Source: Deltaproteobacteria bacterium (lineage in GTDB: Bacteria; Desulfobacterota; Syntrophobacteria; BM002). From it: 64,000 bases of DNA. Positions within the stretch are counted from its first letter, which is position 1. The number at the start of each line of letters is the position of its first letter. Shown here in pieces: positions 7,595 through 62,494 of this stretch. Below the pieces are notes generated by a model, which had not been told where the DNA came from, searched no databases, and worked only from the letters and a program-made list of their open reading frames with translations. A program made the position numbers and the translations under genes. The stretch spans positions 155 to 64,154 of the forward strand of contig JAJDNL010000239.1 in the NCBI GenBank assembly GCA_022340745.1, written 5' to 3'.

Positions 7595-7680
7595 AGAAAT
7601 TGAGGGATTGAGGAGCACCGGTCTTTTTGAGAGAGTCTGGTGCAACGAGAGTAATGCAGTACTGCAAAATATAAGCTTCC

Positions 7681-7780
7681 AAGCACAAAATCTGAAGGTG
7701 TCGGGTGTCAGGTGTCAGGTGTCAGTGAGGAAAACAAAAAAACTGAAACCTGAACACTGAAACCTGAAACCTTCTCTACA
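7681..7780. repeat. heptamer-built hairpin element (family D): (GTGTCAG)3 arm / A-rich loop / (CTGAAAC)n arm
   Basis: AAGCACAAAATCTGAAGGTGTCGGGTGTCAGGTGTCAGGTGTCAG...AACTGAAACCTGAACACTGAAACCTGAAACC; arms are imperfect reverse complements. Ends 5 bp before the dxr GTG start. Confidence 0.7.
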
Positions 7781-7785
7781 TTAAG

Positions 7786-17163: not shown

Positions 17164-17336
17164 TAGCCCGGATATTTCATGAAATATCCGGGCTCAATCT
17201 ATTCCCCTCCCAGGTAGTATCCAGGAAGGGGAAATTTTTCTTTACAGTGGGGTCAACTGCTTGGTGGTGTCACCACTTGCGGCTGACACCACCGTGATGA
17301 ATGTTAGCCCGGATATTTCATGAAATATCCGGGCTA
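17164..17336. mobile_element. MITE-A compound copy: two minimal 31-bp perfect palindromes flanking a 110-bp hairpin-rich core
   Basis: TAGCCCGGATATTTCATGAAATATCCGGGCT occurs at 17164-17194 and again at 17305-17336. The segment between them contains a 10-bp stem (GGTGGTGTCA...TGACACCACC). Lies 9 bp upstream of the leuC start. Confidence 0.7.
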
Positions 17337-21582: not shown

Positions 21583-21831
21583 TGTTGCCCTGCAATCCGG
21601 CGGGAATTGTTATCTCAGAGGACCATGAGGGCGGGGATAAGCCCCGCCCCTTCACATGCAGCAAAGCGCAGAGCGCCAGGCGCATAGCGTTTGGTAAAGA
21701 ACGAACAGTGGCCGGTAAAACGATTATGCACTGATTCTTTAAAACGTTCAGCGTTTACCACTTAGCCTTCACTCATTTTTTTCTCTATGCTCTATGCGCT
21801 ATGCGCTATGCGATATTAGGCATTTCCTTCC

Positions 21832-23728: not shown

Positions 23729-24003
23729 TTGCCTTTGTGAGACCCTCTAACCGGAGACCCGCCCCAAAGGGATTGAGACTGAGCGCAGCGAGCGCGAAGA
23801 AGAAGGGTGTGCCACAGAAGCGACGATCACAGAACGCGGATTAAAATTTTCCTGAAAAGCTCGTGAGAACCAGAGATCTAATGGCGCAATGTGAACTCTT
23901 ACATTCAATATCATCAATTGTAGTCAAAAATCCGAAACCGGGAACCCGCCCGGAGGGTGGGAGTCCGAAGGACAAATTCGCAATCCGCAATCCGAAATCA
24001 GGC

Positions 24004-25596
24004 TTGCTTATTATTCTGCTGGTCAGTATCGCCTTGAACCATTGCGGACTTTCTGGAATCAACAGTTGGGACAGCCAGGTGCGCGGTTCGGACCAGATGC
24101 CGGACAGTATCCGACACCTGGTGCAGAAGCTCGCCACAAAAAGTAAGAAAGTCGAAAACCACACCGGTCTGGCCATTACCTATCCTTATGATGGAGCTGT
24201 TTTTCCTCCTGAGATTGCAGCACCTGTTATCGTATGGGAAGACGCCAATGCGGCTTCGAACCACTGGCTTATCGTGGTCGAATTCAGCAGCCAACGCAGT
24301 CCGATTTACGCTATTGCTGACGAGCAGGGCTGGGCACCGGACCAATCGATCTGGGAGGCCGTCAAAGCCAACTCAGTCCGCGCTCCTGCGAAAATAACCG
24401 TTTACGGTTTTGACCTCCAACATTCCGACACCATCGTCGCCAAGAACAGCATCCGCATTTCCACTTCAAAAGATCGTGTTGATGCCTCAATATTTTACCG
24501 ACAGGTCCAGCTCCCATTTAAAGTAGGGAAGAAGAATTTTAAAAAGCTAAAGTGGCGCCTTGGTGATATCTCTTCATATGAAAAACCGCCAGTTGTCATG
24601 GAAAATCTTCCTGTTTGTGCAAGCTGTCATCTTTTTTCAAAAGACGGCACTTTAATCAGCATGGAGATGAACTACAAGGAGGACAGTGGCGCTCATTTTA
24701 TCACGTCGGTCAGGGAGAATATTGAGTTGTCTGCAGAGGATTTCATGAGCTGGAATGATTTCCCCAGGCCGGAACTTCTGCCAAAAACCAGGGGCCTGTT
24801 TGCCAAGATATCGCCCAGCGGAAAATACATGGTGAGTACGGTACATGAGATATCCTATGCCGCCCTGACCAATAATTTTGCTTTCTGCCAGCTCTTCTTC
24901 CCAACCTACGGCGTGCTGGCCTGGTATTCGGTTGACAACAGGGAGTTTCATCTCCTTGCCGGAGCTGATGATTATGACTTTGTCCAGACTGACCCCAGCT
25001 GGAGCTGGGATGAAAAGTATATTGTCTTTGCCAGGTCAACCACCAAAAACGACTACCATGAAGACATCACAAACATCCACACCCATATCGAGGATGCCGA
25101 CATTCAGGAACTGAATGAAAAATTTCCCATCCAGTTTAATCTTTACAGGATGCCGTTCAATCAAGGAAAAGGCGGGATACCAGAGCCCTTAAAAGGTGCA
25201 AGTCACAACGGCATGAGCAACTATTTTCCAAGATATTCGCCGGACGGCAAGTGGATTGTCTTTACCCGCAGCAGGACCGGCATCATGCTCCAACCGGATA
25301 GCGAACTCTTTATTATACCGGCAGCCGGAGGCGAGGCTCGAAGGATGCGTTGCAACCGTGAGCTTTTCAATTCCTGGCACAGCTTTTCGCCCAATGGGAA
25401 ATGGATGCTTTTCAGTTCCAAGGCCAATACTCCTTTTACCGAAATCTTTCTGACCCACATTGATGCCAACGGGGTTGACAGTCCCCCGGTATGTTTATCC
25501 CGTTTCAGCGATGACCACTATGCCGCCAATGTGCCGGAGTTTGTCAATATTGGGCCCGGGGCGATCAAGAAGATAAAGATTTCGGCTCAGCGCTGA
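24004..25596 (+). CDS. exported CXXCH-motif protein with C-terminal TolB-like (PD40) beta-propeller
   Basis: Single C-A-S-C-H haem-c binding motif mid-protein (PVCASCHLF). C-terminal repeats YFPRYSPDGKWIVF / SFSPNGKWMLFSS are PD40/TolB-like. Hydrophobic N-terminus. Start uncertain: the ORF opens at 23863 but its first 140 nt are occupied by a dispersed hairpin repeat, so 24004 (TTG) is my best guess. Confidence 0.5.
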   Translation: MLIILLVSIALNHCGLSGINSWDSQVRGSDQMPDSIRHLVQKLATKSKKVENHTGLAITYPYDGAVFPPEIAAPVIVWEDANAASNHWLIVVEFSSQRSPIYAIADEQGWAPDQSIWEAVKANSVRAPAKITVYGFDLQHSDTIVAKNSIRISTSKDRVDASIFYRQVQLPFKVGKKNFKKLKWRLGDISSYEKPPVVMENLPVCASCHLFSKDGTLISMEMNYKEDSGAHFITSVRENIELSAEDFMSWNDFPRPELLPKTRGLFAKISPSGKYMVSTVHEISYAALTNNFAFCQLFFPTYGVLAWYSVDNREFHLLAGADDYDFVQTDPSWSWDEKYIVFARSTTKNDYHEDITNIHTHIEDADIQELNEKFPIQFNLYRMPFNQGKGGIPEPLKGASHNGMSNYFPRYSPDGKWIVFTRSRTGIMLQPDSELFIIPAAGGEARRMRCNRELFNSWHSFSPNGKWMLFSSKANTPFTEIFLTHIDANGVDSPPVCLSRFSDDHYAANVPEFVNIGPGAIKKIKISAQR

Positions 25597-25610
25597 GCGC
25601 AAAGCGTGAA

Positions 25611-25697
25611 GTAAACAGTAAACGGTGAACGGTAAACCGATCATGCGCTGGCTCCGCGACTGTTTACCGTTTACCATTTACCGTTCTTTCTTTTTTT
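25611..25697 (+). terminator. rho-independent terminator-like hairpin built from GTAAAC(A/G/C) heptamers
   Basis: GTAAACAGTAAACGGTGAACGGTAAACC ... GTTTACCGTTTACCATTTACCGTT inverted arms followed by a TTCTTTCTTTTTTT tract; 15 nt after the stop of the CXXCH/PD40 gene. Confidence 0.55.
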
Positions 25698-25786
25698 CGC
25701 TATGCGCCATGCGCTATGCTCTATGCGATCTGACCTGGCCCTGAGGACCAGGTCTGCTACTTTGAATCAAAGACGGGAGTTAATCT

Positions 25787-31689: not shown

Positions 31690-31873
31690 TAGCCCGGATA
31701 TTTCATGAATGACTTGCTGCGACCACGGATATGCACGTCCTTCCTGGCGTCCTCGGATGTCGGCCCCTGCAACGTACGGTACAGGTACGCCTCGGAACCG
31801 ACACCCTGCGGTTGCCAGGTTGCACGCCCATCTTCGTGGTCTCGCGACAGCAATTCATGAAATATCCGGGCTA
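31690..31873. mobile_element. MITE-A copy (184 bp), terminal inverted repeats TAGCCCGGATATTTCATGAA
   Basis: Perfect 20-bp TIRs; internal nested inverted repeat (TTGCTGCGACCACGG...CTCGCGACAGCAA). Core shares GTACGTCGCA...CGACACCCGAGGACGCC...ATATCCGCGGTCGCAG blocks with the other copies. Confidence 0.75.
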
Positions 31874-32923: not shown

Positions 32924-34312
32924 CTACTCTTGAGGATGAGAGCCGAAGGAGAAAAGCCCATCACTTGCCATCAAGGCTGGTTGTCCGGTCCAGGGGGCGG
33001 TCCTGGCAATGGCTTCCTCTTCAGCGGCAATATGGACAAAATCGTCCAACCTTCCCGCCCGCCACCACTCAGTCAACTGCACAGCGTCAGCCCACAGGTT
33101 CTCGCAGTAGACTTGCAGTTGTTTCATCTGAGCCTCATTTATGAGCCGCGGTCGCCAAGCGGTCATTATCGGGCCCAACAGATAAGTGTGCCCCATGGCC
33201 ACGGCCTGCTCATTCACTTCCTGGCGAATTTCTTCAAGTAAGCTGTACTGCACTCGACAAATGGCTGCATTGATTTGCTCTGCCACTTCGCCCCCGGGAG
33301 TGGTTCTCGGCAGGAGAGCAAGCGCCTGGGTGCCACCTCCAGCCCCAACATTCGTAGGAATTCCGCCAAAACGGCCCAGAAAACCGATCAGTCCCGCATC
33401 TGTGATGAGGCAGCGAAAATCCGTCTGCCACCTTTGCAATCCCACCCTTTGCTCTTCGCTGAAAAGCCAGGGGGAGTCTTCCGCCCACAGAGGAAGTGGC
33501 ACCAGTTCCTGCACAATATAATCGCCGGCCGTGAGAGCCTCCTGGAGATCTGCATCCGGGTCTTCACTCTTGAAGCCGATAAAGATCCCTTCGCCGGAAT
33601 AGCCTTGCACGGGCTTGAGCACCAGCCGATCCCAATTCTCCTTGGTCCAGGTCACCAAATCGTTTATGGCCTCGTCCTCGGGCCCGGTGGTAGATCTCTC
33701 ATACAATTGCCTCGTCCAAGGTGTTCTTTGAACCGTGGTCTCATGCAACTGCTCACGTAGGGAATCGGTAACTGCTTCAAATATACCTTTGGCTCCCGCA
33801 GGCTCCATCCCGCGAGGGTTCACAACCAGATCATCTTTGATGGCTTGACGTAGGGCCGTGAGGGGTCCGTCTTTTTCCATCTTTAAAAGCACGTCATTGT
33901 TGAAATCCATAAAGATCAAGGTTACCTGAAGGCCCTGGTGGTACAGAGATCCTTTATGATAATCAAGCTCCTGCGGGGCGGCCAGTGCCGCCGTTACCTC
34001 ATCGATACTACCTAGATACTGGACAAAATTTCGGTTTTCAACGACTGTATCCAGCGTATCAGGCTCGGCCACCAGAACGATGTGAGCTGCTTGGTTTCCA
34101 TTCCGTTTCTTATGAGCTCGAAGCAAGGCAGCTGCAAAAGCAGGTACCGGATTCAAAAATTCATGGTCGAAATCAAGACGAATATCCAAGCCTAAATGAG
34201 GTTGCAGCAGACGCCATGCTAATTTACCCAACTCCTGGGTGATTCGTTGATATTCCCAACCACCAGGACTGCCGAGATTCCACTCCGAGTGATAACCTAA
34301 GAAATCTTCCAC
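32924..34312 (-). CDS. ATP-grasp fold ligase-like protein (GshB/RimK-type core with extra N- and C-terminal regions)
   Basis: 462 aa. Central LVLKPVQGYSGEGIFIG (ATP-binding Lys loop), DYIVQELV, and ...GRFGGIPTNVGAGGG (R-x-N-x-x-GG) match ATP-grasp segments. Confidence 0.5.
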   Translation of the reverse strand: MEDFLGYHSEWNLGSPGGWEYQRITQELGKLAWRLLQPHLGLDIRLDFDHEFLNPVPAFAAALLRAHKKRNGNQAAHIVLVAEPDTLDTVVENRNFVQYLGSIDEVTAALAAPQELDYHKGSLYHQGLQVTLIFMDFNNDVLLKMEKDGPLTALRQAIKDDLVVNPRGMEPAGAKGIFEAVTDSLREQLHETTVQRTPWTRQLYERSTTGPEDEAINDLVTWTKENWDRLVLKPVQGYSGEGIFIGFKSEDPDADLQEALTAGDYIVQELVPLPLWAEDSPWLFSEEQRVGLQRWQTDFRCLITDAGLIGFLGRFGGIPTNVGAGGGTQALALLPRTTPGGEVAEQINAAICRVQYSLLEEIRQEVNEQAVAMGHTYLLGPIMTAWRPRLINEAQMKQLQVYCENLWADAVQLTEWWRAGRLDDFVHIAAEEEAIARTAPWTGQPALMASDGLFSFGSHPQE

Positions 34313-34339
34313 AGATACCTCCCTCGTTCGTGTCCACCC

Positions 34340-34424
34340 GAATGTCGGGTGTCAGGTGTCAGGTGTCAGGGAAGAAAAACAAAACAACTGAAACCTGAAC
34401 ACTGAAACCTGAAACCTCTTCTAC
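34340..34424. repeat. family D heptamer hairpin element copy
   Basis: GTCGGGTGTCAGGTGTCAGGTGTCAGGGAAGAAAAACAAAACAACTGAAACCTGAACACTGAAACCTGAAACC; immediately upstream (5' side) of the ATP-grasp gene on the other strand. Confidence 0.7.
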
Positions 34425-34520
34425 CGACAAAGACATTGAACTATGACCCCCGCAAGGCGGGATCGTGGACTGGCCCCAAGGACCAGGTTTTCGATGTTAA
34501 ATAAGTGCTGACTAACCAGT

Positions 34521-36188
34521 TTATTTGAAGCCACCTGCAGCTGAACTACCATCCTCCGTCAGATTTTCAAATCTCCAGGCAGCAAGATGAAATGGTATCT
34601 CGCCCCCCTCCAATAGGAGCCGGTGAAAATGCTGCCAGCCAAACGCGGGGAGAAAACGTTGCCGCAGCTCCATAATCTCGTATTTCCCCAGGCTGTAACA
34701 CAGCTGGTAGCCAGGATTCAACCGAAATCGTTCCACTTGAGCCATTGCCTCGTCCGCCGCGAAACCTACTGATACGAGGAGATCGGCACCCTTTTCCATG
34801 GTAAAGCTCTGCATGGCCAGGCCGGAGTCTATCAAACACCGAGCTGCCCGCCACAGTCTTCTCTTACAATCCACCAGGAGTTCCAACTCGTCCTTTACAT
34901 ACCCGGATTCGGCAAGAATAGCTTCCGCATAGTAGGCCCACCCTTCATAGAAAAGGGGCGATTCGATTTGACGCCGCACAGGGTTTTTCAGGTGTCGCCG
35001 GATGCTGTCCAATAAATGATGTCCGGGATAGGTTTCGTGTCCAGAAAGAAACCTGTACTCACGATGTAACCGTTGCCTGCGGAGTACGTCCATGTGTGAA
35101 TTGCCGGCTGTATTACCAGCGGTAATGTAGAAGTAGGCCTGTTCACCAGGGTCAATAGTTAACGGCGCGCTGTATGAGGCACCACTTCTCACTGATCGTA
35201 AATAGGTTGGTGTTTCGCTGAGTACTACCTCCTGGTCCAGATGGCCATCTAACAGCTTGAGTTTTTGGCAAAGATCACGAAGACTTTCTATTTCATCACC
35301 GTAGAGGCGAAAAAGATCCAGTTCTTCCCCTGTGCCAGGTAGGTAGTTCTCATAAAGCTGCTGCCAATCCTGGCTGGGATCGATGCTTCGACGCAGCCGG
35401 TCCATTTCTTCCTGGCTGTCCTGCCATTCTTCCTCAGCGATGGCGAAAATTTCCTCCAATGGCCTATTGCAGCCGAAATGGCGCTGAACAAGCTCTTCTA
35501 CCGAAATCGACTGAACCGACGCTGCGGGTGTCGGTCCAATTGCTCGCAGTCTCTGGGAAAAAGCAGCAAGCGCATGCTGGGCTTCGTTGCACACTCGTAC
35601 CAGTTGTCTCCGGTGGCTCTCTCTCCTCACCTCTCGAAGAAGTTCTTCAAGATACTCTTGCGCATCCTTACCCATCGCCACTGCGGCCCGATAGTAGGGC
35701 CCGGGGATGGTGCTTAAATTCTTGCCCGCTTGCCTCAACAAGCAGCTCAGACCAGCAAGCCGTTCAATAGTACGCTCGAAACGCTCCTTTTCGTCGGCGG
35801 CAGGCTTGTTCACAGCATGATCCACCCCGATACAACCGACCTTGAGATACATCAGAGGATTATGACGCCAGGATTGGACCTCTTCTAATTCAATGAGCAC
35901 GCCAGCCATGTTGTGCAGCAGAAACTGCCGATCAATTTCCTCTTCGAAATCCTGAGCCGCTGGTTGTTTTCGCAATTGGTTCTGCAGGTCACGCACGGAC
36001 GCCCCCACTGTTCCAATTGCTTCCTGGCTCAATTCGTCCGTACGGTCCAAAAACTGTACCGCTTCTTGGACACGGGGCAGAAAGTGGAATTCATCACTGG
36101 CGCACATCACCGGAAAAGCTCTGGCGAGTAAGGAGAAGTACTCTTCGGCTATTCTGCTTATCTGGCTTTCCGGCTGATCTGACATCAT
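34521..36188 (-). CDS. DUF885-family protein (putative metallopeptidase-like)
   Basis: About 555 aa. Contains HETYPGHHLL, which matches the conserved HE-x-x-PGHH block I associate with DUF885. Start set at MMSDQ. Confidence 0.55.
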   Translation of the reverse strand: MMSDQPESQISRIAEEYFSLLARAFPVMCASDEFHFLPRVQEAVQFLDRTDELSQEAIGTVGASVRDLQNQLRKQPAAQDFEEEIDRQFLLHNMAGVLIELEEVQSWRHNPLMYLKVGCIGVDHAVNKPAADEKERFERTIERLAGLSCLLRQAGKNLSTIPGPYYRAAVAMGKDAQEYLEELLREVRRESHRRQLVRVCNEAQHALAAFSQRLRAIGPTPAASVQSISVEELVQRHFGCNRPLEEIFAIAEEEWQDSQEEMDRLRRSIDPSQDWQQLYENYLPGTGEELDLFRLYGDEIESLRDLCQKLKLLDGHLDQEVVLSETPTYLRSVRSGASYSAPLTIDPGEQAYFYITAGNTAGNSHMDVLRRQRLHREYRFLSGHETYPGHHLLDSIRRHLKNPVRRQIESPLFYEGWAYYAEAILAESGYVKDELELLVDCKRRLWRAARCLIDSGLAMQSFTMEKGADLLVSVGFAADEAMAQVERFRLNPGYQLCYSLGKYEIMELRQRFLPAFGWQHFHRLLLEGGEIPFHLAAWRFENLTEDGSSAAGGFK

Positions 36189-36420
36189 TCGTGCTATTTT
36201 ATTGAGGTTATGAATTCCGAAATGAGAAACACGAAGCACGAAACAAATTCAAAATTCAAATTTTCCAATATTCAAAACAATTTCTTTCCGGAAAGCAATT
36301 ACCATTTTGGCCATTTGGATTTCGAAAATTTGAAAATTGTTTCGGATTTCGATATTCGGATTTCGGAGTTTGAAACTATCGCTGCGGATCTGGGACACCT
36401 TCTGGTTACCAGCGATCATT

Positions 36421-37059
36421 CTAACCAAAATCTAAGTCTGGGGGTACCTCCCAGTCGTCGCCGAGAAAAAGCGGGAGCTCAGCGATGCAGATCGGACCCA
36501 CCCTTACCTTCCAGCCAGTCTGCCTCGCCAGTGGCTCCTGCAACGAGGAGGCGAATCCGGGAAGAATCATCTCCCGCTTCGCCTTTTCGTGGTTCAACTG
36601 TGAATCTTCCAGGTGGGCAGCTATCTTTTCGGCTTTCAATGACTGGTAGATCATGGCCATATCAACGGTATCTCCGCGGCAATCAACGCAGAGCAGCCAA
36701 AAAGGACTAAGAGTGCAGGCCATTATTGAGGTAAGCACTTCTTGGGTAAACTCGCTGTTGCCTGAAACGATGAGCAGGCTGCGTTCGTTCGCCTGGTTAA
36801 TCTCCGTCAGCCCTTCAGGGGCTGGGCGTGGTAGCTCCAGGGCAGGGACTTGGGGAAGAAATTGGTCGGCCTTCATAGCCAAATAGAAAGCCCGTACTTG
36901 GTTGCCCTTTAGAGAGGGGCAGTTGTCCGGCGTCCGGGTTCCGTTTTTCATGTGCTTTACGAAAGCAGCACAAGAAACCTCTCCGCACTCTTTACAGTCA
37001 GTCCGCGGGAGATATTGGAGAAAATCGATTCTTTTCAGGTAAAGGTCAGCTGCAATCAT
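36421..37059 (-). CDS. Fe-S cluster protein with CFeSP/RnfB-type N-terminal 4-Cys domain (PF04060-like)
   Basis: N-terminal LPRTDCKECGEVSCAAFV is the C-x2-C-x4-C...C pattern found at the N-terminus of the corrinoid Fe-S protein large subunit and RnfB. The remainder (about 150 aa with a CVDC pair) is unassigned. Confidence 0.5.
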   Translation of the reverse strand: MIAADLYLKRIDFLQYLPRTDCKECGEVSCAAFVKHMKNGTRTPDNCPSLKGNQVRAFYLAMKADQFLPQVPALELPRPAPEGLTEINQANERSLLIVSGNSEFTQEVLTSIMACTLSPFWLLCVDCRGDTVDMAMIYQSLKAEKIAAHLEDSQLNHEKAKREMILPGFASSLQEPLARQTGWKVRVGPICIAELPLFLGDDWEVPPDLDFG

Positions 37060-37182
37060 ATATTCACTGGGGTTAATCCGGCGTGACGTAGGCTGATTCT
37101 CTGAAAAGAGGAAAAGGCACGCTAGATTACAGGGAAGGGATATGAGAAATAACTACTAGGAGTGCTTCCAGGCGGCGTTAGA

Positions 37183-37515
37183 CTACGCTTCCTGCGAGTG
37201 ACGGACAAAGTTATCGAGCCTGAAAACATCCGACCGGCTGAGTTCGATCCACTTCAACCCCACGCCTTGATCCCCACAAGGTTCGTGTTTGGGGCATATC
37301 CAGACGACTTCAGCCCGGGATACAACTGAGCCATGATATTGGGGTAGGTGAACGTTGATTTGCACCCGATCACCCACGTGCATGCTTTCACCGGTGCGGA
37401 CAAAAACTCCAACAGGGCTTATATTCTTGGCCTTGCCTTTGGCGGCGCCACGATCGCCAATCAGACAGTATTGTGTATTGATGCTTGCGCGCGGAAAGCG
37501 TCTTTCTTCTTTCAT
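37183..37515 (-). CDS. PilZ-domain protein (putative c-di-GMP receptor)
   Basis: 110 aa; RRFPR...(20)...NISPVGVFV matches the PilZ RxxxR / (D/N)xSxxG motifs. Confidence 0.7.
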   Translation of the reverse strand: MKEERRFPRASINTQYCLIGDRGAAKGKAKNISPVGVFVRTGESMHVGDRVQINVHLPQYHGSVVSRAEVVWICPKHEPCGDQGVGLKWIELSRSDVFRLDNFVRHSQEA

Positions 37516-37707
37516 CTAGAGCCGCTCCAAAGTGTTTTATTTGTTCATCTTATATCATAATAACAAGGAATTGTATAGTGAAAGTGGTCACTCCCCTGTA
37601 CTCATCAGCCATGCGATAGCCTGCTGGAGTAATGGAGTGGCGAAGCATTGCAGAATATCAAATTGGTCCTTCGGACACCCCACCCTGCGGGCGGGTCCCC
37701 GGTTTCC

Positions 37708-37786
37708 AAGCACAAAATCTCTGGGTATCAGGTGTCGGGTGTCAGGGAAGAAAAACAAAACAACTGAAACCTGAAACCTCCTCTAC
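37708..37786. repeat. family D heptamer hairpin element copy
   Basis: AAGCACAAAATCTCTGGGTATCAGGTGTCGGGTGTCAGGGAAGAAAAACAAAACAACTGAAACCTGAAACC. Confidence 0.7.
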
Positions 37787-38041
37787 CGGCACAGCCATTG
37801 AACGCTGACTTGGCCCCAAGGTCTAAGTTTTCATCTTGAAAATGCTCCAGCGAGCGCATTCCCCGTAGCGACACGACTTGAGCGACACGACCTGAGCTCG
37901 TCGACAGGTCTCGTCGACAGGTCTTGCTGCAGGGAGCTTCAATAAATAGAGGAGCTCCCGACAAGGTAATTCTGTGTCTTGACGATTGTTTATGCTAAAA
38001 TGTTGCGGTCTTTTCTACTGATCTAGTCTTGGAGGTAATGT

Positions 38042-39730: not shown

Positions 39731-40158
39731 TAGATAACCCCCACCATCAAGTGAGGCTACGCTAGTTCTATTGAAGCTCCCTGCAGTCCGCCTTCGGCGG
39801 ACTACGGGGAATGCGCTCGCTAGAGCATTTTCAACGCAGAAAATCTGGCGCTTGGGGCCAGTCTTTTTTGATTTATGATTGCAGATTGAAGTGTATACAT
39901 TTTATATTTAAAAGTTGTGAGTTCTTAAATCTAAAATCTGCATTCTAAAATCTAAAATCCCACAGGCAGTCCTAAGCCGGGTCCTTTGGGCCCGGATTCT
40001 TTATTCTCTACCCTCATGCACATGGAATTCTTTGACTTTTTCACTTGATTTTTCCCAAAGCCATGTATTAAATTCGCCTTGATAATCGCCGGTTTCTCAA
40101 AGTGGGTCGATTTCGCTTCAAAGGATTGCTTCCTTGGCCAAAGCGGCGACCTAAAGTC

Positions 40159-46919: not shown

Positions 46920-47333
46920 ATGTCTGAAAGACTGATAGAGAAAATCGCCCTGCCAAACGGTTTGATTCTAGAAATCTGGGACACATCTCACCTCATGGCG
47001 GGCGACAGATGGTTGGTCTCGCTTCTCGCCAAGGTGGAAGTCACTGTCTTGCCCGAGTACTTCTCTCCACTTGACGATGGCGAACAGGCTTACCAAGATC
47101 TGGTCGCCGCCCATGGCAACTCTCTGGTTTTTACCCAGGAAAAAGTGAGACTTTTCGTGGATAAAGGCGAAACCAAAGAGGTGCTCACCAGACTGCGCCG
47201 GAGCATCAAGGACAATCTGGCAGCATATCTCGGCAACCCCAAATTTGCCTCGTCTTACGTACTGAAAAAATATGGCGACCTCCGAGATCGCCAGAATTGG
47301 GGCGCCGCCCCCCCTAGCCCGGATGTTTCATGA
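46920..47333 (+). CDS. hypothetical protein, 3' end defined by MITE-A insertion
   Basis: ORF with no family recognised. Its last codons and its TGA stop lie inside the MITE-A left terminus (…GCC CCC CCT AGC CCG GAT GTT TCA TGA). Confidence 0.35.
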   Translation: MSERLIEKIALPNGLILEIWDTSHLMAGDRWLVSLLAKVEVTVLPEYFSPLDDGEQAYQDLVAAHGNSLVFTQEKVRLFVDKGETKEVLTRLRRSIKDNLAAYLGNPKFASSYVLKKYGDLRDRQNWGAAPPSPDVS

Positions 47334-47550
47334 AAATGCTATAGCGAGCGCGTCCTCCGTAGCGACTCGACCTGAGCGACACGACCTGAGCTCGTCGACA
47401 GGTCTCGTCGACAAGTCTTGCTGCGGGGTTAGCGAGCGAATTACAATAAAACGGTACGTCGCAAAGTGCGACACCCGAGGACGCCCAGAAGGACGCCTAT
47501 ATCCGCGGTCGCAGTCCGCCGTAGGCGGAATTCATGAAACATCCGGGCTA
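47315..47550. mobile_element. MITE-A copy (236 bp)
   Basis: TAGCCCGGATGTTTCATGAA ... TTCATGAAACATCCGGGCTA termini; same core blocks. The left TIR supplies the last codons and TGA stop of the upstream ORF 46920-47333. Confidence 0.75.
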
Positions 47551-47824: not shown

Positions 47825-48211
47825 CCACTGTTCACCTCTCTTTCACCATAAAAAAAGCCCTTTTCACAGGGCCCAGCCGCAACTTTCTTTGGCATGAATC
47901 GTTGTAAGGAACTGAACCTCTTCATGGTCTCAGAAGTTATCTACCAAAGCAATCGTGCTGCTGCAGTCCCCTATCAACTTTTTATCTAACATATCCTCTT
48001 GGCAGTGGCAACCCCGCACCCCTCAGGAGTTACTCCATTCCTTTGCTCACTTGGCAGATGATAGGTTGAACCGCAGAATATCGAAGTGAAAAACATTGTC
48101 TTATTTCTTTCAAAAACTTCTGCCGTTCGAAATTCCTCGTTCGATATTCACAAACGACTATTTACTTCACTCCGTATTATAGCGACCCAAGGAAGGCTGA
48201 TTGAATATCTA

Positions 48212-55630: not shown

Positions 55631-55733
55631 TACCCTCACCCCCTTGTACATTTTTGATTGCAGACTGAAGATTGCAGATTACAAAATCTCAGTGCTGCAA
55701 CTGAGCTCAATCTAAAATCTCAAATCTTAAATC

Positions 55734-56582
55734 TTAAATCTCAATCTTTTCATTATCCTGCGTGCACCCTGGAACTGTCAAGAGCTCCAGTAAATGCTCC
55801 AGAGTGACAACTTCATCCGGCTCAACCAGCCCTCTACGAGCGAGCATCTCTCCGAGGTCAGCAATGGCAGGCACTTCCAAGCCAAGTTGATTAACAAGCT
55901 CCTTTTCCTGTAAGAGCCTGCCTGGAGAGTCGTCGAAAACTAACACGCCATTGTCTAAGGCAACCAGCCTCTGAGCAAGAAGAGCCTCTTCCAAAAGATG
56001 CGTGCTGTGCACCATTGTGCAGGACTCTCTCGCCTGGATGTCTTTCAGGAGGTTTAGTATTTCAGCGCGGCTCCGTCCCGCAACCATACAAAGAGGATCG
56101 TCCAGCAGGAGACATCCTTTCTGCTGTGCCAGAGCGCCAGCAAGGATCAGCCGCTGCTGCTCCCCTCCTGAGAGATGGTGGCTGAAATGTGCCGCCCGTT
56201 CATAAAGATCAACATACCGCAGGGCTTCCTCTACCCGGATTTGAATAGTCTCCGGAGTTAATCCCATGTTTTCGAGACCGAAAGCTACGTCCTCTGCCAC
56301 CACCGGTGAGACAATCTGGTTTTCAGGATTGGCAAAAATGCAGGCTGCAAGGTGGTTGAGTTCTCTTGCAGCAAGAACAGAGCCGTTTATCCTGATCTCT
56401 CCGGCTTGGGGTTGGAGTAAGCCCTTCATTAACTTCAGGAGCGTGGTCTTCCCGCTCCCTGAAGGACCCACTATTGCCACCCACTCTCCAGCAGTAATAC
56501 GCAGATCGAAATCAGCAAATACCGGTTCCTCCGCGCCGTCCTGGTAAGAGAAGGTTACCTTGTTGAGCTCAATACTGACCAT
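55734..56582 (-). CDS. ecfA: energy-coupling factor transporter ATPase (EcfA1-like ABC ATPase)
   Basis: Walker A GPSGSGKTT, signature LSGGEQQRLILA, Walker B LLLDDP. Confidence 0.8.
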   Translation of the reverse strand: MVSIELNKVTFSYQDGAEEPVFADFDLRITAGEWVAIVGPSGSGKTTLLKLMKGLLQPQAGEIRINGSVLAARELNHLAACIFANPENQIVSPVVAEDVAFGLENMGLTPETIQIRVEEALRYVDLYERAAHFSHHLSGGEQQRLILAGALAQQKGCLLLDDPLCMVAGRSRAEILNLLKDIQARESCTMVHSTHLLEEALLAQRLVALDNGVLVFDDSPGRLLQEKELVNQLGLEVPAIADLGEMLARRGLVEPDEVVTLEHLLELLTVPGCTQDNEKIEI

Positions 56583-56644: not shown

Positions 56645-56828
56645 CAGCTCGGATGTTTCACCAATTGGTGTCGCGAGACCGCAATGATGAGTGTGCCACC
56701 GGGCAACCACAGGGTGTCGGATCCGAGGCGTACTTGAACAGTACGTCGCAGGGTCCGACACCCGAGGACGCCCGGGAGGACGATCATATCTGCGGTCGCA
56801 GCAGGTGATTCGTGAAATATCCGGGCTA
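56645..56828. mobile_element. MITE-A copy (184 bp) with degenerate left terminus
   Basis: CAGCTCGGATGTTTCACCAA ... TTCGTGAAATATCCGGGCTA; core nearly identical to the 40159 copy (GTGTACTTGAACAGTACGTCGCA...GGTCCGACACCCGAGGACGCCCGG). Confidence 0.7.
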
Positions 56829-56912: not shown

Positions 56913-57662
56913 ATGACCGACACCGCGAGATTCAAAAAAGGCGCCACCATCATCCACGAAGGAACCACCGGTTCTAACGCCTATCTCATTCTTTCGGGCT
57001 CGGTGGAGGTGTACAAAAAAGTTGGAGATGAAAAGCTGGTACTGTCCAGATTAGTAAAGGGCAACATTTTTGGGGAAATGAGCCTTGTGGATGACAAACC
57101 TCGCTCCGCGACTATTGCTGCCTTGGAAGATACCGAAGTGAGAATCTTGAGCCGCGAGCGCTTTGAGTCCATGTTGGAGCAAAACCCTCGCGCCGTTATC
57201 CCGCTACTCAAACAGGTTTTTCAGCGCGTCAGATATTTGAACCAGATGGTAACGGCATTCTGTGGTCAAGCCAGCACCGGGACCGTGGAATTGGCGACTC
57301 ATCCTCTTCGGCTAACGGCCAAAACTGAAGAGGCCGAACAAGCCATGCAGGGCAAGGAGATAGATATCAGCAAAATACCCTTTCAAATTGGCAGGACCTC
57401 TACCAGCAGCGTGTTTGGCTCTAATGATTTGAACATTGAAGACACAGAGCCATATCGGATTTCTCGATGCCATTGCCTGATAACCATTGTGGATAACGAA
57501 TATTATGTGGTTGATACGGTAAGCAGCCGCGGAACCGTGGTTGACAGCAGTAAAATCGGAGGCCGAGAAGACCTGAAGCGAGTATTACTTGCAAGTGGCA
57601 AACATCAGATTATCCTGGGTGGCGAAGAGTCACCGTATGTGTTTGATCTTGAAGTTCCCTAG
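56913..57662 (+). CDS. cyclic-nucleotide-binding domain / FHA domain protein
   Basis: N-terminal cNMP-binding fold (GNIFGEMSLVDDKPRSATIAA). C-terminal FHA (IGRTSTSS...ISRCHCLI...YVVDTVSSRGTVVDSSKI). Its TAG stop is the first three bases of a MITE-A terminus fragment. Confidence 0.75.
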   Translation: MTDTARFKKGATIIHEGTTGSNAYLILSGSVEVYKKVGDEKLVLSRLVKGNIFGEMSLVDDKPRSATIAALEDTEVRILSRERFESMLEQNPRAVIPLLKQVFQRVRYLNQMVTAFCGQASTGTVELATHPLRLTAKTEEAEQAMQGKEIDISKIPFQIGRTSTSSVFGSNDLNIEDTEPYRISRCHCLITIVDNEYYVVDTVSSRGTVVDSSKIGGREDLKRVLLASGKHQIILGGEESPYVFDLEVP

Positions 57663-58082
57663 CCCGGAGAGATTTTAGATTTGTCCTGCGGACTCCCACC
57701 CTTCGGGCGGGTTCCCAGTTTTAGAATGCAGATTTCAGATTTAAAAGCTCAAGACCTTCTAGTGAAGAATGCATTCACCTCAATCTGCAATCTCCAATCT
57801 GCAATCATAAATCTAAAGAGACTGGCCCTGAGACCAGGTTTTCTACGACTAAATAAGATCTAATTCCCCCCACTCCCCCCATACAAAGTGGTAATTTATT
57901 TCCACTTTGTTACCTTTACTTCCCAAAAATTACCTCGCAGTTTTCCCATAAGATCTTTTTAACTATTTGGAATCGTAGAGAAATTTAAAAGATTGCCTTT
58001 TGGCACGGTCTTTGTTTATCAAGGCTTCACTGAGCAAATTAACTCATGCTGACGCCGACAAGGAATGGTACGAGAAGTCCGT

Positions 58083-59168
58083 ATGAAATTAACTAAAGCA
58101 AGACGGCTTTCACTGCGTGTTCCGGTGATAGGATGGGAAGCGTTTATATCAACAAAGAAATCCGAAAACACGCGCGCGAAAGTTGCCAATGTCAGCGCTG
58201 ACGGGGCTTATCTAATTACCGGAAAACACTATCAGCCAGCCTCAACGGTCGCTCTGTCGATCAAGTCTCCTGTAATCTCCTTTTCCGTTACAGGAATGGT
58301 AGTTCGAAACGATCCATTCGGTGTGGCTATTCGTTTTCTCAATCACAGTGCATCAACCAGAAATTCGCTTTTGACAATTATCTCTAAATTATTGGCCGAA
58401 AAAAAGTCAAACCCATCAGGTTTGAACGAGGCTCCAATAGGCAGTGAACATCAATCAAAGCTCAACCTTGATGCAGAGCAAGAATGCTTTCACGCCAGTG
58501 GACTATTATCCACGCCATCGGGCACAGCAGCCCCACGTTCACGAGAGAGAAAGAGCATGAGGTCATCAGGACAAGAATGTTTCTACACCAGTGCACTGAT
58601 GGCCACGGCACCGTGCAGCGAACCCCCTCCCCGTTTGGCGGAGTGTAATAGTACCAGGTCAAAGGACAACAATTTTATGATTAGCTCAGCTCCAGCCCAT
58701 AGCGCAGAATCACTGAAGGTATTCTTGAGCCACTGTGGAACAACTACAGTGAAGTGCCCTTTATGTAAGAAATGTCATTACACCACAGTCCCTGAACATT
58801 TTCACAACAAACCGGTTCGGGCAAAATGTGAGTGTGGCAAGTCTTTTTCTGTGCTTTTCGACAGCCGACAATATTTTCGCAAAGAGGTGCAACTGCCTGG
58901 GGAATACCGGGACACGTCTGGCGCGCAGGACCTGATGACCGTAACAACGCTATCTATTCGCGGTGCAGGATTTGAAACAAGACGAGGCAACATTTTATTA
59001 AAAGAAGGAGAAACCATTCAGGTAAACTTCTTGCTCAATAAAAATGATCGGAACTGGATTAAATTAAAAGCAGTCGTCAAACGGGTTAAGGGTAATCAGG
59101 TAGGCGTAGAATTCACTGGGCTGAATGAGCACCAGCAAAAGTGCATTGGATTTTATCTGATGCCTTGA
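58083..59168 (+). CDS. dual PilZ-domain protein with central zinc-ribbon
   Basis: N-terminal PilZ (RRLSLR...NVSADGAYL). C-terminal PilZ (RKEVQLPG...TLSIRGAGF). Central Cys cluster CPLCKKCH...CECG. Confidence 0.65.
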   Translation: MKLTKARRLSLRVPVIGWEAFISTKKSENTRAKVANVSADGAYLITGKHYQPASTVALSIKSPVISFSVTGMVVRNDPFGVAIRFLNHSASTRNSLLTIISKLLAEKKSNPSGLNEAPIGSEHQSKLNLDAEQECFHASGLLSTPSGTAAPRSRERKSMRSSGQECFYTSALMATAPCSEPPPRLAECNSTRSKDNNFMISSAPAHSAESLKVFLSHCGTTTVKCPLCKKCHYTTVPEHFHNKPVRAKCECGKSFSVLFDSRQYFRKEVQLPGEYRDTSGAQDLMTVTTLSIRGAGFETRRGNILLKEGETIQVNFLLNKNDRNWIKLKAVVKRVKGNQVGVEFTGLNEHQQKCIGFYLMP

Positions 59169-59824
59169 AACGAGTACCACTGTCTGAGTCTTGGGGCACC
59201 CGGTTTTCTTTGAGATTTCACCCCTCACACTGTAATCCATGCCTTCTTCCTGAAAGACCTGCTACCACCTTGTGTGCGAGATCCAATACGTTCAGAACTA
59301 TGAAGGAGGGGATGAGATCCACACTGCAGAGTCTCACCTTCCTTTCTAAGCTAATCGATTAACCCAGAAAATGGTGGTTTTTCAGTTCACTTGTGGTAAA
59401 ATGTCAATGGATCACAGGGTAGGAGATTCAGGTTTTCTGCATTATCCTACTCCCGCAGGCTTTGCCCTCACTGGCTCTGGCCAGTGGGGGCATTTTTTTT
59501 GGTGTTGCGCCCTTAACGTTTTCCAATATTCTGTGCCAGACTGAAATCCAGCCGAGTGTGCATTAAGGGATGTAATGAGCGCTTGCCCGTCGTGCTAGCT
59601 TCGTTCATATATTGCATCTTCAGCCGCAGTTTGGGCAACTCTTGGAACAGAAAACTTGATCTGGTCCCTCATTGGATTGGGAAGCTTGCCGAATGGGACT
59701 ATTGAGGTCATGCGGTGACACTTGACAAAGAGATATTGGTTACTGGCCACTTCTCTGATAAAATCGGTCTTTCTTATCGACTTCTTTATTCCTAACGGGA
59801 ATTTTTATCATTAAAGAGCAATGA

Positions 59825-60502
59825 ATGGTTAGAAATGTTGTAAGGACATCTGCGGAAAAAACGATTGACCGGTTTGGGACTCCGGCCGCAGCGGAGAAAT
59901 ACTCGACTGCTTTAGAAGGGACAAAAACACATCTAAGGGAACAAAGGTGTATCCAACGTGCGCTGCAAATGGTTCCTGTGGGTGCGAAGGTGCTCGATCT
60001 TCCCTGCGGAGCGGGTAGGTTACTGCCCTCACTCACGGCCCTGGGTCTTCAGGCTGTCGCTGTCGACTCATCCCCCCATATGGTTGCTCTTGCCCGCCAA
60101 CGGGCGGAAACCAGAGGATTTAAGAAAGAAACAGAGTTTCTTGTTTCCAGTATTTTTGACACCGGTTTGAAAGATGATACTTTCGATGCAGCAATCTGCA
60201 ACCGATTGTTTCACCACTTTAGGGAGCCGCAAATTCGCCGGAATGCCCTGAGAGAACTTCACCGACTCTGTACCGGAACAATTGTGGTTTCATTTTTCTG
60301 TAATCTGGCGCTTGATGCATTAGTGTTTCATCTTAAAAATGCAATCAGGCGGAAAAAGCCGTCGGACCGCATCCCAATCGGTTATGGTGTCTTTGCTCGT
60401 GATATAGATGCAGCGGATCTTCTTATTGAGAGATCGATAGCGACGCGACCTGGAATTTCTCGACAATGGTACTTTGTTGTGAGGCGTAAAGTCCTTCCCT
60501 GA
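59825..60502 (+). CDS. class I SAM-dependent methyltransferase
   Basis: Motif I VLDLPCGAGRLLPSL; acidic residue after beta2; post-II FDAAICNRLFHH. Confidence 0.7.
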   Translation: MVRNVVRTSAEKTIDRFGTPAAAEKYSTALEGTKTHLREQRCIQRALQMVPVGAKVLDLPCGAGRLLPSLTALGLQAVAVDSSPHMVALARQRAETRGFKKETEFLVSSIFDTGLKDDTFDAAICNRLFHHFREPQIRRNALRELHRLCTGTIVVSFFCNLALDALVFHLKNAIRRKKPSDRIPIGYGVFARDIDAADLLIERSIATRPGISRQWYFVVRRKVLP

Positions 60503-60546
60503 AAACACTTATAAACGGTAACTAATCGTTCTAGGTATGGACCCAG

Positions 60547-61215
60547 ATGGAAAGACTAGATCTAGCAGACTATGAACGACTGGTTGCCGGAGCTAGAGTG
60601 CTCTCTGCCGACAGTTATGGTGAAAAAGTTCTAGAACTTCCTGATGGTCTTATGCTCAAGCTCTTCCGCCGAAAACGAGGATTTTCCTCCGACCTTTTAT
60701 GGCCTTATGCAAAAAGATTTGAAGCTGGGGCGAGAAAGCTTCGTGAACGACAGATTCCAACTGTAGAAGTGGTCGGCACCTATCGAGTAAAATCTATCAG
60801 GAGAGATGCCGTGGTTTATTATCCTCTCGAGGGTAGGTCCCTGCGGCAAGCATTGAGAGACTTCAATAATCAAAAAGCCCTGATCATGAACTTTGCGGCA
60901 TTTTTTGTAAGCCTGCATGAAGGAGGGATCTATTTTCGTGCAACTCATTTCGGGAACGTTGTTATTACTCCCAACGGTGAGTTCGGCTTGATTGATGTGT
61001 CAGAGGTCTACTTCTCCCGATCTGCTCTGAGCCTGTCAAAACGAGTCAGAAATTTTAGGGTCATATTTCGCTACAGAGAAGATCGGGAGGCTATTCTGGC
61101 CTCTGGTTTTGACTTGTTCTTGGATTCTTACCTTGCAAATTCAAGTGTCCCAGTCAACGATCGTCAATCGTTTGTCCAACGGCTCTGGAGTGCACTTCAG
61201 CTTGACAGCTCATAG
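60547..61215 (+). CDS. lipopolysaccharide-kinase / protein-kinase-like fold protein (Kdo/WaaP/RIO-like)
   Basis: LHEGGIYFRATHFGNVVITPNGEFGLIDVSE resembles the catalytic-loop and DFG-like region of Kdo/WaaP kinases (H.GNV....LIDV). Weak. Confidence 0.4.
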   Translation: MERLDLADYERLVAGARVLSADSYGEKVLELPDGLMLKLFRRKRGFSSDLLWPYAKRFEAGARKLRERQIPTVEVVGTYRVKSIRRDAVVYYPLEGRSLRQALRDFNNQKALIMNFAAFFVSLHEGGIYFRATHFGNVVITPNGEFGLIDVSEVYFSRSALSLSKRVRNFRVIFRYREDREAILASGFDLFLDSYLANSSVPVNDRQSFVQRLWSALQLDSS

Positions 61216-61600
61216 AGTTGATCATCTGCTAAATACCAGACTCGATTGTTATATGGACTCAGCCCTAAAGAGTTATGTAAATTTTTTAGGAGGCATCAAT
61301 CGCTCTGAGTTTCAGGTAATTTCTGGATTAGGTTGTGGCTAACCCAAGACTTATTATCTACATTGCATAGCAGTTTGTCGAAATTTTATATAGCATACTT
61401 TAATCCACCGTGTACCGCTTGAGAACCAGATACCATATGGTGGAGCAACCAAACCATGCTCCAGCGCTCCTGGAAATTCCACCAAGACTAAGCTGCCAGC
61501 CGCTGACCAATTCTCGAGGGGTTAACGTCAGGAGCAGTAAAGAATCCGGGCCCATCGAAGATCCCGCTGTGCGTAAAAGGAGCCCAGCACTTTACGGTTT

Positions 61601-61678
61601 GTCCTGCGGACTCCCACCCTACGGGTGGGTTCCCGGTTTGTCCTGCGGACTCCCACCCTACGGGTGGGTTCCCAGTTT
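61601..61678. repeat. two tandem 39-bp hairpin units GTCCTGCGGACTCCCACCCTACGGGTGGGTTCCC(G/A)GTTT
   Basis: Each unit contains a CCCACCC-TACG-GGTGGG stem-loop. Related single units at 57683-57722, 37663-37700, 5128-5160 and, reverse-complemented, at 23936-23974. Confidence 0.7.
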
Positions 61679-61699
61679 GTCCTGCGGACCAGGTTTCCT

Positions 61700-61740
61700 A
61701 AAACTAAATAAGAAAGGGCAGTCCATCTGCAGACTGCCCT
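61700..61740 (-). terminator. rho-independent terminator of rplQ (bidirectional hairpin)
   Basis: GGGCAGTC-CATCTGCA-GACTGCCC stem 30 nt downstream of the rplQ stop, followed on the minus strand by TTTCTTATTTAGTTTT. Confidence 0.55.
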
Positions 61741-61768
61741 CTTTATGAGTCACCGTGGAAAAGAACTA

Positions 61769-62494
61769 CTACTTCTCGTCCTCGTCTTTGGCTTTCTTGG
61801 TCCTACCTTTTTTCTTTTTGGCAGTTTTTGTAGCTTTCTCTGACTCAGGCTCTGAGGCCTCTTCAGCTGCCGGGGCTTCGGCTTTCGCCTTTTTCGCGGG
61901 TTTACGCTTCTTCTTTTTCTCTTCGACAGCTTCCTCTGCTACCGCCTTTTCAGCTGCCGGTGCTTCGGCTTTCGCCTTTTTCGCGGGCTTACGCTTCTTC
62001 TTTTTCTGCTCGACAGCTTCCTCTGCTACCGCCTCTTCAGTTGCAGCTTCCTCCTCTACTATCTCCTCAACAGCCGGAGGTGCAGCCTCTACAGCTTTGC
62101 GGGGTTTGCGTTTCCTCTTCTTTTTCTTCTTTGCAGCTTCCCCGGTCATCAGCTCGATGAGACTCAATGGGGCACCATCACCAACCCGAAAACCTACTCT
62201 TACCATACGAGTGTAGCCGCCACTGCGGGCCTGATAACGCTGGGCCAGATCAGTAAATAATTTGTGAACCACCGCCTTATCTCGTATGACTTGGAGTGCC
62301 TGGCGTCTGGCGTGCAGATCTCCCCTTTTTCCCAAGGTTATCATCCAATCAGCCCAGCGCCGAAGCTCCTTGGCCTTGGCATGGGTGGTGTATATACGTT
62401 CGTGATCCAGCAGCGAAGTCACCATGTTGCGAAACATGGCCAACCGATGGCTGGAAGAGCGATTCAGCTTTCTCCCACTCTTGCCGTGTCGCAT
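61769..62494 (-). CDS. rplQ: 50S ribosomal protein L17 with long Lys/Ala/Glu-rich C-terminal extension
   Basis: N-terminal 120 aa are canonical L17 ([24 protein letters not shown]...). The C-terminal 120 aa are a low-complexity [19 protein letters not shown] repeat. rpoA-rplQ synteny. Confidence 0.9.
61864..62037. repeat. 87-bp direct tandem duplication inside the rplQ C-terminal extension (2 copies, about 95 percent identical)
   Basis: Copy 1 at 61864-61950 and copy 2 at 61951-62037 differ at about 4 positions. Encodes the repeated AVAEEAVE(Q/E)[19 protein letters not shown](K/E) 29-aa unit. Confidence 0.8.

Follow-up and report, generated by a model that had tools for sequence, protein, structure and literature searches.

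We describe here a family of very small hairpin-forming repeats in a 64,000-nucleotide stretch of Deltaproteobacteria bacterium DNA (assembly GCA_022340745.1, contig JAJDNL010000239.1, positions 155 to 64,154; below, the window), where two kinds of intergenic unit, module A and module B, form a mosaic next to rplQ. According to our analysis module A is an independent insertion module, and module B is the weakly structured right end of larger composites and not a free unit. With moderate confidence we regard A and its subtype A' as a non-autonomous miniature insertion element, which would be recognised in single-stranded form and mobilised in trans by an enzyme whose gene lies elsewhere. The anatomy of A, its insertion behaviour, site preference, distribution and polymorphism can be read directly from its copies. 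An earlier note on this DNA had compared the mosaic to the bacterial interspersed mosaic elements (BIMEs) built from repetitive extragenic palindromic (REP) sequences, and had suggested a lineage-specific REP-like system, possibly with a REP-associated tyrosine transposase (RAYT); that layout is confirmed, and the REP-type mechanism is not borne out.

Module A as an insertion module

The copy set comprises 109 full copies, taken from the window and 98 genome loci; L with a number labels a locus on a related contig, and W with a number gives a position in the window. In the 64-kb window itself A occurs seven times, with none expected by chance. The patterns for A matched 4 and 2 times against 0.00 expected from shuffles of the window, and the pattern for B matched 3 times against 0.02.

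A copy is usually located within a heptamer tandem array, and the array phase gives a direct view of insertion. If the unit is removed exactly (offset 0), the heptamers on its left and right match at a mean of 4.56 of 7 positions, reaching at least 6 of 7 in 24 of 64 copies; at other offsets such a match is found in 0-1 of the 64, except for the periodic offsets -7 (4 copies) and +7 (20 copies). Phase is restored in this way although the length of A, 39, cannot be divided evenly by 7.

Paralogous filled and empty sites occur in four other repeat families, with the unit at the same internal point. Eleven copies of the rep81 family are filled and one, in L088, is empty (ttcgatatt^cgatatt, where ^ marks the junction). 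Among type-I composites the filled ones are W37666, L010 and L089, and the empty ones L012, L030, L043, L070, L090 and W7677. The type-II composite has the unit at W57683 and lacks it in L011. In type-III composites A' occupies two alternative internal points, both of them in L098 and neither in L063 and L064. In addition, the orthologous spacers of L013 and L072, whose flanks are 93-96% identical, carry A at different places.

Insertion also shows a site preference. In 98 of the 109 copies the left flank is ATTT, ATTG, AATT or TATT, and about 75 of the 109 have C as the next base. Otherwise A and A' stand in at least six unrelated flank contexts, namely CGGATTT, GCAATTC, AGATTTY and CGATATT arrays, ATCAAATT^CCAAGCAC and CCAAAATT^CAAATGACC, which have in common only ATT(T/G)^C and therefore argue against a spread by homologous exchange.

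Anatomy and folding of the modules

Taken together, the copies of module A read GTCCTKCGGAC-TCCCACCC-NNN-GGGYGGG-TTCCCRGTTT, and the 109 copies form two subtypes with sharp boundaries. Subtype A has 39 nt, GTCCTTCGGAC-T-CCCACCC-TTC-GGGCGGG-TTCCCRGTTT, and is preceded by ATTT; subtype A' has 40-41 nt, ...TCCCCACCC-TGC-GGGCGGG-KCCCCRGTTT, and is preceded by ATTG or ATT. Pairing of TTCCC and TCCCC with a last flank base T and G, respectively, was seen between subtype and flank, and we considered it as a possible "guide-base" covariation; this was rejected, since the flank G is better explained as belonging to the inserted unit. The two ends of A, GTCCTTCGGA... and ...GGTTCCCRGTTT, are not inverted repeats in the 109-copy consensus.

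Structurally, A consists of a 4-bp hairpin followed by a 7-bp hairpin, each with a 3-nt loop, and folds with a free energy (dG) of -9.6 to -9.8 kcal/mol at a z-score of about -2.5. Stem-loops had been predicted for all the units, and folding supported them for A, where both hairpins formed, and not for B, whose hairpin is weak (dG -2.5 to -4.1, z -0.3 to -0.8, not significant) and no better than those of shuffles. Folding is better for the complement of the strand that reads GTCC.... At its fourth pair the long stem has an A·C mismatch when read as GTCC..., and in 91 of 103 copies the complementary strand has G·T there; on this strand 99.1% of stem positions are paired, and wobble-bearing copies are more stable on it than on the other (-9.3 vs -6.2 kcal/mol). 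On the complementary strand hairpin 1 has a GNA loop in all copies (109 of 109), and hairpin 2 has one in 95 of 103. In single-stranded DNA, triloops of the type C-GNA-G have an exceptional stability. The sole compensatory stem change found is CTCC/GGAG, in the copy at 986-1025.

Module B, CTGGCCCYRAGGACCAGGTTTTC...AATAA, has the consensus (T)GAC-CTGGCCCYRAGGACCAGG-TTTTCKAKGWYTRAATAA and is about 40 nt long. It has, as A does, a mismatch (C·A) which becomes G·T on the complementary strand. B is invariably found at the right edge of a larger composite, bordering unique DNA, and a search for its filled and empty pairs found none, for which reason we read it as a composite terminus and not as a free insertion. 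The view of B as a collapsed pair of terminal repeats was not adopted; its symmetry is limited to an 8-bp stem.

Distribution in a Syntrophobacteria clade

Recurrence was scanned with the exact pattern in one genome per species, which gave at least 98 loci in genome contigs, 80 of the matches being listed; the units thus recur well beyond the window. At least 17 repeat-bearing assemblies are among the 80 matches listed, with three closed chromosomes (CP070843, CP070689 and CP070735). The suggestion that the family is lineage-specific agrees with the labels of these matches, all but two of which are Syntrophobacterales, Syntrophobacteria, Desulfobacterota, Desulfobacteraceae or Delta(-)proteobacteria. 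The rpoA region of the window has 95% identity to a contig labelled Syntrophobacteria, and the window therefore belongs to the repeat-bearing Syntrophobacteria group. The hosts are uncultured bacteria of sediments. Across genomes the A copies are at least 90% alike, and the orthologous flanks there are only about 70-95% identical.

Two module-bearing contigs, L004 and L009, carry the labels of beta- and alpha-proteobacterial bins; both are from sample MFD09779, which also gave a delta-proteobacterial bin with the module, and these labels could reflect mis-binning or transfer. The A pattern had no match in the viral contigs scanned, and there was no cyanobacterial genome among the 80 matches listed. 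Around the rplQ relatives, 80 metagenome loci (311 kb) held no copy of A, a negative that says little about those genomes because the loci are gene-dense ribosomal regions. No description of repeats in this Syntrophobacteria lineage was found in the literature searched.

The mosaic behind rplQ

The order of parts that had been described next to the rplQ terminator is correct: two tandem 39-nt hairpin units, detected also by Tandem Repeats Finder (TRF) with a period of 39 and 98% matches, are followed by GTCCTGCGGACCAGGTTTCCTAAAACTAAATAAG (61679-61712) and then by a 13-bp hairpin (61713-61742). The latter is, according to a terminator scan, the terminator-like site located immediately 3' of rplQ, on the minus strand. 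The rplQ product is Ribosomal_L17 (Pfam). We place this intrinsic-terminator-like hairpin (61713-61745, minus strand) outside the repeat family, as it is also present in relatives without the modules.

All the other parts of the mosaic are on the plus strand. The left part of a composite block (AGTAAAGAATCCGGGCCCATCGAAGATCCCGCTGTGCG...ACGGTTT) lies 3' of the rplQ terminator at 61538-61600, with approximate edges, and is absent at the equivalent place in L112; bases 61537-61581 have 84% identity to another repeat copy in L068, where it leads directly into the end of B. The first copy of A (61601-61639), a perfect GGGTGGG variant with two hairpins, is documented by its sequence, folding, TRF and the pattern match, and the second (61640-61678), in direct tandem with it, by TRF and the pattern match. 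A third A, recognised by sequence comparison, is truncated to hairpin 1 (GTCCTGCGGAC, 61679-61689) and runs through GGAC into the end of B. The junction CTGCGGACCAGG, not recognised in the earlier note, is thus an 11-nt stump of A joined to the end of B. The right half of B with its tail (GGACCAGGTTTCCTAAAACTAAATAAG) occupies 61686-61712; read on the minus strand, this tail forms the T-rich tract that follows the rplQ terminator.

In two relatives, L112 and L114, in which the N-terminus of L17 is 96% and 91% identical, respectively, the terminator is kept and the whole block is missing, the terminator running directly into sequence that matches the window from about 61537 leftward. Because these relatives are without it, the block at about 61538-61706 is an insertion relative to them. 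A metagenome contig, L099, has an identical L17 and flanks with one substitution, and carries four copies of A as against two in the window, so the array is unstable on a strain timescale. In L120, a distant relative (L17 72% identical), B lies in the same orientation again behind the rplQ terminator, which hints at a preference of B for an A/T-rich terminator tail.

An open reading frame (ORF) of 112 codons at 61410-61748 spans the A array and encodes a repeated peptide (LSCGLPPYGWVP); it is probably spurious, since the near-identical contig L099 has no called gene there. The L17 gene itself (61769-62494, minus strand) has a long Lys/Ala/Glu-rich C-terminal tail with an 87-nt (29-codon) tandem repeat at 61857-62044, and the length of L17 among the relatives is 241, 278, 273, 237, 230 and about 146 residues.

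Can the units spread without a dedicated enzyme?

It would be logical to ask if any dedicated enzyme is needed, as similar heptamer arrays could exchange A through homologous recombination or gene conversion, and arrays of A could lengthen and shorten by replication slippage. A sits in repeated sequence that is able to supply homology, the A array differs in length by whole multiples of 39, and a target duplication is not clear. Heptamer number also slips between strains: L102 (2228-2447) and window positions 57740-57790 differ by one CAATCTG heptamer, gained or lost, and are otherwise identical, which indicates strain-timescale slippage in these arrays. We nevertheless consider such a spread unlikely, since the motif shared by the unrelated flank contexts described above is far too short for homologous exchange, and since the two extra A copies of L099 are unlike their neighbours in both loops.

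The REP, BIME and RAYT reading

The comparison to E. coli was justified in part. Like REP, BIME and REPIN elements (the last being REP doublets forming hairpins; PMC3116915), A is a short, imperfectly palindromic, hairpin-forming unit of similar size, extragenic (except for spurious short ORFs), present in many copies and combined in mosaics with other short motifs, and its asymmetric stem suggests, as in REP, that one strand is the one read. On this reading the units would be REPs, spread by a cognate RAYT (an IS200-like Y1 transposase) whose gene lies elsewhere in the genome. A wobble confined to one strand, and a fixed flank, would also suit a single-strand HUH enzyme of this kind.

The features that define REP are, however, not found. 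BIMEs and REPINs are built on alternating or inverted units (PMC3116915), whereas pairs of A neighbours within 300 nt are 7 direct and 0 inverted. The consensus of the 109 copies starts with ATT(T/G)^GTCC and ends with RGTTT, with no conserved 5' box of the GTAG type or a similar tetranucleotide. A has two different hairpins in place of one REP palindrome, and, unlike REP, its units are found in divergent promoter spacers as often as expected. Strand bias relative to replication, which was also proposed for examination, is not seen by local GC skew per locus, a weak proxy (38:41).

As for the enzyme, no RAYT- or Y1-like ORF was found by a scan for the Y..NP and HUH motifs in the 723 kb of repeat-bearing DNA (the window and the 98 loci), a sample too small to exclude a RAYT elsewhere. 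In the same DNA a phmmer search that used E. coli RayT as query reached an E-value of 0.07 at best, all-against-all clustering of ORFs revealed no multi-copy transposase ORF, and no gene flanked by inverted A copies was found in the repeat-bearing loci. The tests made give no tie to a REP transposase, and we judge it improbable that these units are REPs moved by a RAYT.

A possible role in RNA or in protein binding

The units may alternatively be no mobile DNA at all and serve at the RNA level, as terminators, stabilisers of mRNA 3' ends or small RNAs. Several copies are close behind stop codons (that at 57683 starts 21 nt after one), the array at rplQ adjoins a terminator, the G·U wobble would suit RNA as well as DNA, and one orthologous copy is kept in L026 and L050, with flanks of no more than about 70% identity. 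But A is not an intrinsic terminator: it is followed only by TTT, its orientation is unbiased, and the terminator scan picks the hairpin at 61713-61742 instead. Relative to the flanking ORFs the orientation is even (26 vs 22 co-directional, 10 convergent and 9 divergent, by approximate ORF calls), and intergenic regions of every type hold copies. Rfam 15 has no match in the whole window at gathering thresholds, and at E<=1 gives, for 57600-61800 and 34200-38000, only chance-level NsiR1, plant miRNA and snoRNA hits. The even orientation relative to both ORFs and GC skew, together with the lack of an Rfam match, weakens any reading of A as a terminator or another RNA element. Moreover, close relatives are without the block at rplQ, and the filled and empty paralogues demonstrate that the unit is dispensable at a given site, so that an RNA-level role appears very unlikely to us.

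Least probable of all, and hardly to be expected, is that the units are binding sites of a DNA-binding or nucleoid protein, as those of integration host factor (IHF) or gyrase on BIMEs, and spread only secondarily: their very high conservation across species with genes about 70-95% identical does suggest recognition by a conserved protein, but strand asymmetry in wobble and GNA loops would be unexpected for a duplex binding site.

A proposed miniature element moved in trans

We propose instead that A and A' are a miniature insertion element of 36-41 nt, made of two adjacent hairpins and then RGTTT, which would have been copied into many intergenic sites of a Syntrophobacteria clade. It would land just 3' of ATT(T/G), usually next to C, and mostly in A/T-rich heptamer arrays and in larger palindromic composites that have such arrays as arms. 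In its active form the element may be single-stranded DNA with the complement of the GTCC... reading, as the G·T wobble and the GNA triloops suggest, and an enzyme whose gene is at another place would recognise this form and mobilise it in trans. The most plausible kind of enzyme would be a single-strand transposase of the HUH/Y1 type, since such enzymes insert beside a fixed short sequence without a clear target duplication.

The mosaic at 61538-61712 would then be nested. A composite ending in B may have been inserted just after the rplQ terminator; it would carry the tandem A array, with a truncated further A fused to its B end. Re-insertion of the unit beside the GTTT end of a copy already there could change the length of the array, as could slippage or unequal exchange.

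Several points weigh against this proposal. No mobilising enzyme was found in the 723 kb of repeat-bearing DNA, and the mechanism is therefore one that we infer. TT or TTT is common to the flank and the unit end, which makes the exact cut points and a possible 2-3-bp target duplication ambiguous. At 57683 and 23935 the single copy does not vary among 3-6 assemblies that encode an identical neighbouring protein; among these no insertion younger than the strain divergence was seen, and the difference between the assemblies is a 7-nt heptamer indel alone. (Exact-protein look-ups for the genes adjoining 37666 and 994 returned no record.) The difference of two and four copies at rplQ could be due to slippage or to assembly collapse instead of transposition, both assemblies being made of short reads. 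Filled sites are over-represented, because the loci were selected for containing the module. As the copies are so alike, covariation is almost absent, and the fold of A consequently rests on energy and on the pattern of wobble and loops. Finally, a mechanism using single strands of the lagging strand might leave the strand bias that GC skew, weak a proxy as it is, does not reveal.

Other copies and repeats in the window

Reuse of the units in differing combinations is borne out across the window. The other sites that had been listed for them all hold modules, except that the one at 25735-25755 (plus strand; pattern match) is the B hairpin alone, placed after a CGCTATG heptamer array and without the TAAATAAG tail. 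We add a truncated A' and a degenerate B that had been missed, as well as the heptamer arrays, the larger palindromic composites around the units and the independent insertion of A, none of which had been noticed.

On the plus strand, a composite of about 196 nt (57661-57857) has A in its left heptamer arm at 57683-57721, a site identical in five other assemblies, and ends on the right, by sequence comparison, in B with its tail (57823-57857); the same composite is without A in L011. A type-I composite, also on the plus strand, has a 40-nt A' on its left side (37666-37705), GGTGTCA and CTGAAAC arms and a degenerate B at about 37808-37840, and its empty paralogues are in L012 and L043. A second type-I composite (34328-34505, plus) is without A' and ends in B and tail (34470-34505), as found by pattern match and sequence, and a third (7677-7790, plus), lacking both A' and B, is by paralogue comparison an "empty" paralogue. 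The truncated A' (plus strand, 5134-5156; sequence comparison) keeps the first 23 nt. On the minus strand, the A' variant with the compensatory CTCC/GGAG stem (986-1025; pattern match) lies in a palindromic type-III composite (about 960-1160), and A is found inside an AATCCGN heptamer array (23935-23973), at the same site in three other assemblies. In three other assemblies the 39-nt, frame-preserving copy and its heptamers fall within the called 5' end of a PD40/Tricorn_N gene (window 23881-24010); either the called start codon is wrong, or translation adds the unit to the protein as an N-terminal insert.

TRF detected about 30 period-7 tandem arrays and several of period 8 in the 64 kb (for instance 7696-7772, 21785-21816, 25610-25727, 39923-39959 and 55709-55748), a heptamer density that recalls heterocystous cyanobacteria. 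Many of these arrays are inverted pairs that form the arms of palindromic composites. One palindromic composite of about 230 nt, with heptamer arms and A', is inverted between the orthologous spacers L030:800-1120 and L064:560-900, as expected from exchange between inverted arms.

The rep81 family (81 nt, ...CTTCTGCTGTTCGAAATTCCTTGTTCGATATT) is present at 3629-3710 (minus), 48068-48148 (plus) and 4988-5068, never with A'; in other genomes an A' unit usually follows it. A separate family resembling miniature inverted-repeat transposable elements (MITEs), with terminal inverted repeats of about 20 bp (TAGCCCGGATRTTTCATGAA), has three full copies of about 180-235 nt (31690-31872, 47315-47549 and 56646-56827). 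Two 30-nt palindromes of this family (17164-17194 and 17305-17335), with a 110-nt spacer between them, consist of just two terminal repeats, and the family is frequent in the related genome loci too. A strong terminator-like hairpin (13 bp and then T8) is found at 59463-59492, after an ORF ending at 59168; its sub-threshold Rfam match to NsiR1 (22 bits vs 39 needed, E 0.41) is probably due to chance.

Known systems and meaning

Our finding is not a new kind of system, and its mechanism is one we infer. The closest known system in behaviour appears to be the small dispersed repeats (SDR1-8) of Nostoc punctiforme and its relatives. Their insertions were reportedly demonstrated by Elhai and colleagues in 2008 (Genome Res 18:1484, a paper to which PMC5861425 and PMC3116915 refer) through comparison of filled and empty sites; the repeats are said to be 21-27 nt long, some with hairpins, and to be nested in other repeats and in heptamer tandem arrays. 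We know of no mobilising enzyme for SDRs, and to our knowledge insertion-like repeats of such a very small size are described in detail only for Nostocaceae. Like SDRs, A is very small, far below MITE size, shows insertion by filled and empty copies, and is nested in repeats and heptamer arrays. As described, it is set apart from them by its length of 39-41 nt, its two hairpins, prominent direct tandem arrays and its host phylum, Desulfobacterota, SDRs having been reported only in Nostocaceae (PMC5861425). Heptameric repeats are over-represented in intergenic regions of Nostoc and Xanthomonas (PMC4692102), and the window, with its many period-7 arrays, is like the Nostoc genomes unusually rich in intergenic heptamers.

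In layout BIMEs and REPINs, together with pneumococcal BOX, may be taken as nearest, and in the presumed style of insertion the IS200/IS605 derivatives. The pneumococcal BOX element has the structure boxA-boxB(n)-boxC, with terminal inverted repeats in boxA and boxC. It resembles our composites in its modularity, with a middle unit of about 40-45 nt in variable direct tandem number between different ends, and in a copy number that varies between strains. The two are unrelated in sequence and host, the terminal inverted repeats of BOX are a further difference, and BOX modules are not known to us as free-standing insertions into heptamer arrays. IS200/IS605 derivatives, such as the palindrome-associated elements and IS608, would share with A the insertion immediately 3' of a fixed short sequence, no evident target duplication and hairpin ends read on one strand. 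They have a similar hairpin at each end and at least 100 nt, whereas the two hairpins of A differ from one another and fit into 36 nt, and a TnpA was not seen in the 723 kb of repeat-bearing DNA. Classical MITEs, including the TAGCCCGGAT...-ended family of the window, are like A non-autonomous, intergenic and nested, and the larger composites are MITE-like; A itself, unlike MITEs, has no terminal inverted repeats, is below MITE size and shows at its junctions only the ambiguous TT/TTT overlap.

The system described here is thus a second, unrelated lineage with SDR-like behaviour, that is with precise insertion into heptamer arrays and other repeats. For annotators of Desulfobacterota metagenome-assembled genomes it is of practical relevance, as both A units and heptamer arrays interrupt assemblies of short reads and give rise to spurious ORFs. 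A comparison becomes possible of the genes that are common to element-bearing genomes and missing from element-free sister genomes. We may even suggest, as a possibility which we hold doubtful, that A and A' belong to an ultra-small class of mobile DNA ("nano-elements", 36-41 nt), in which single-stranded GNA-triloop hairpins would home to ATT(T/G)^C in heptamer arrays by a machinery that is neither RAYT nor a DDE transposase, and that the same kind of process would be behind the SDRs of Nostocaceae. If this is true, heptamer-rich genomes of two distant phyla would share an unrecognised insertion mechanism.

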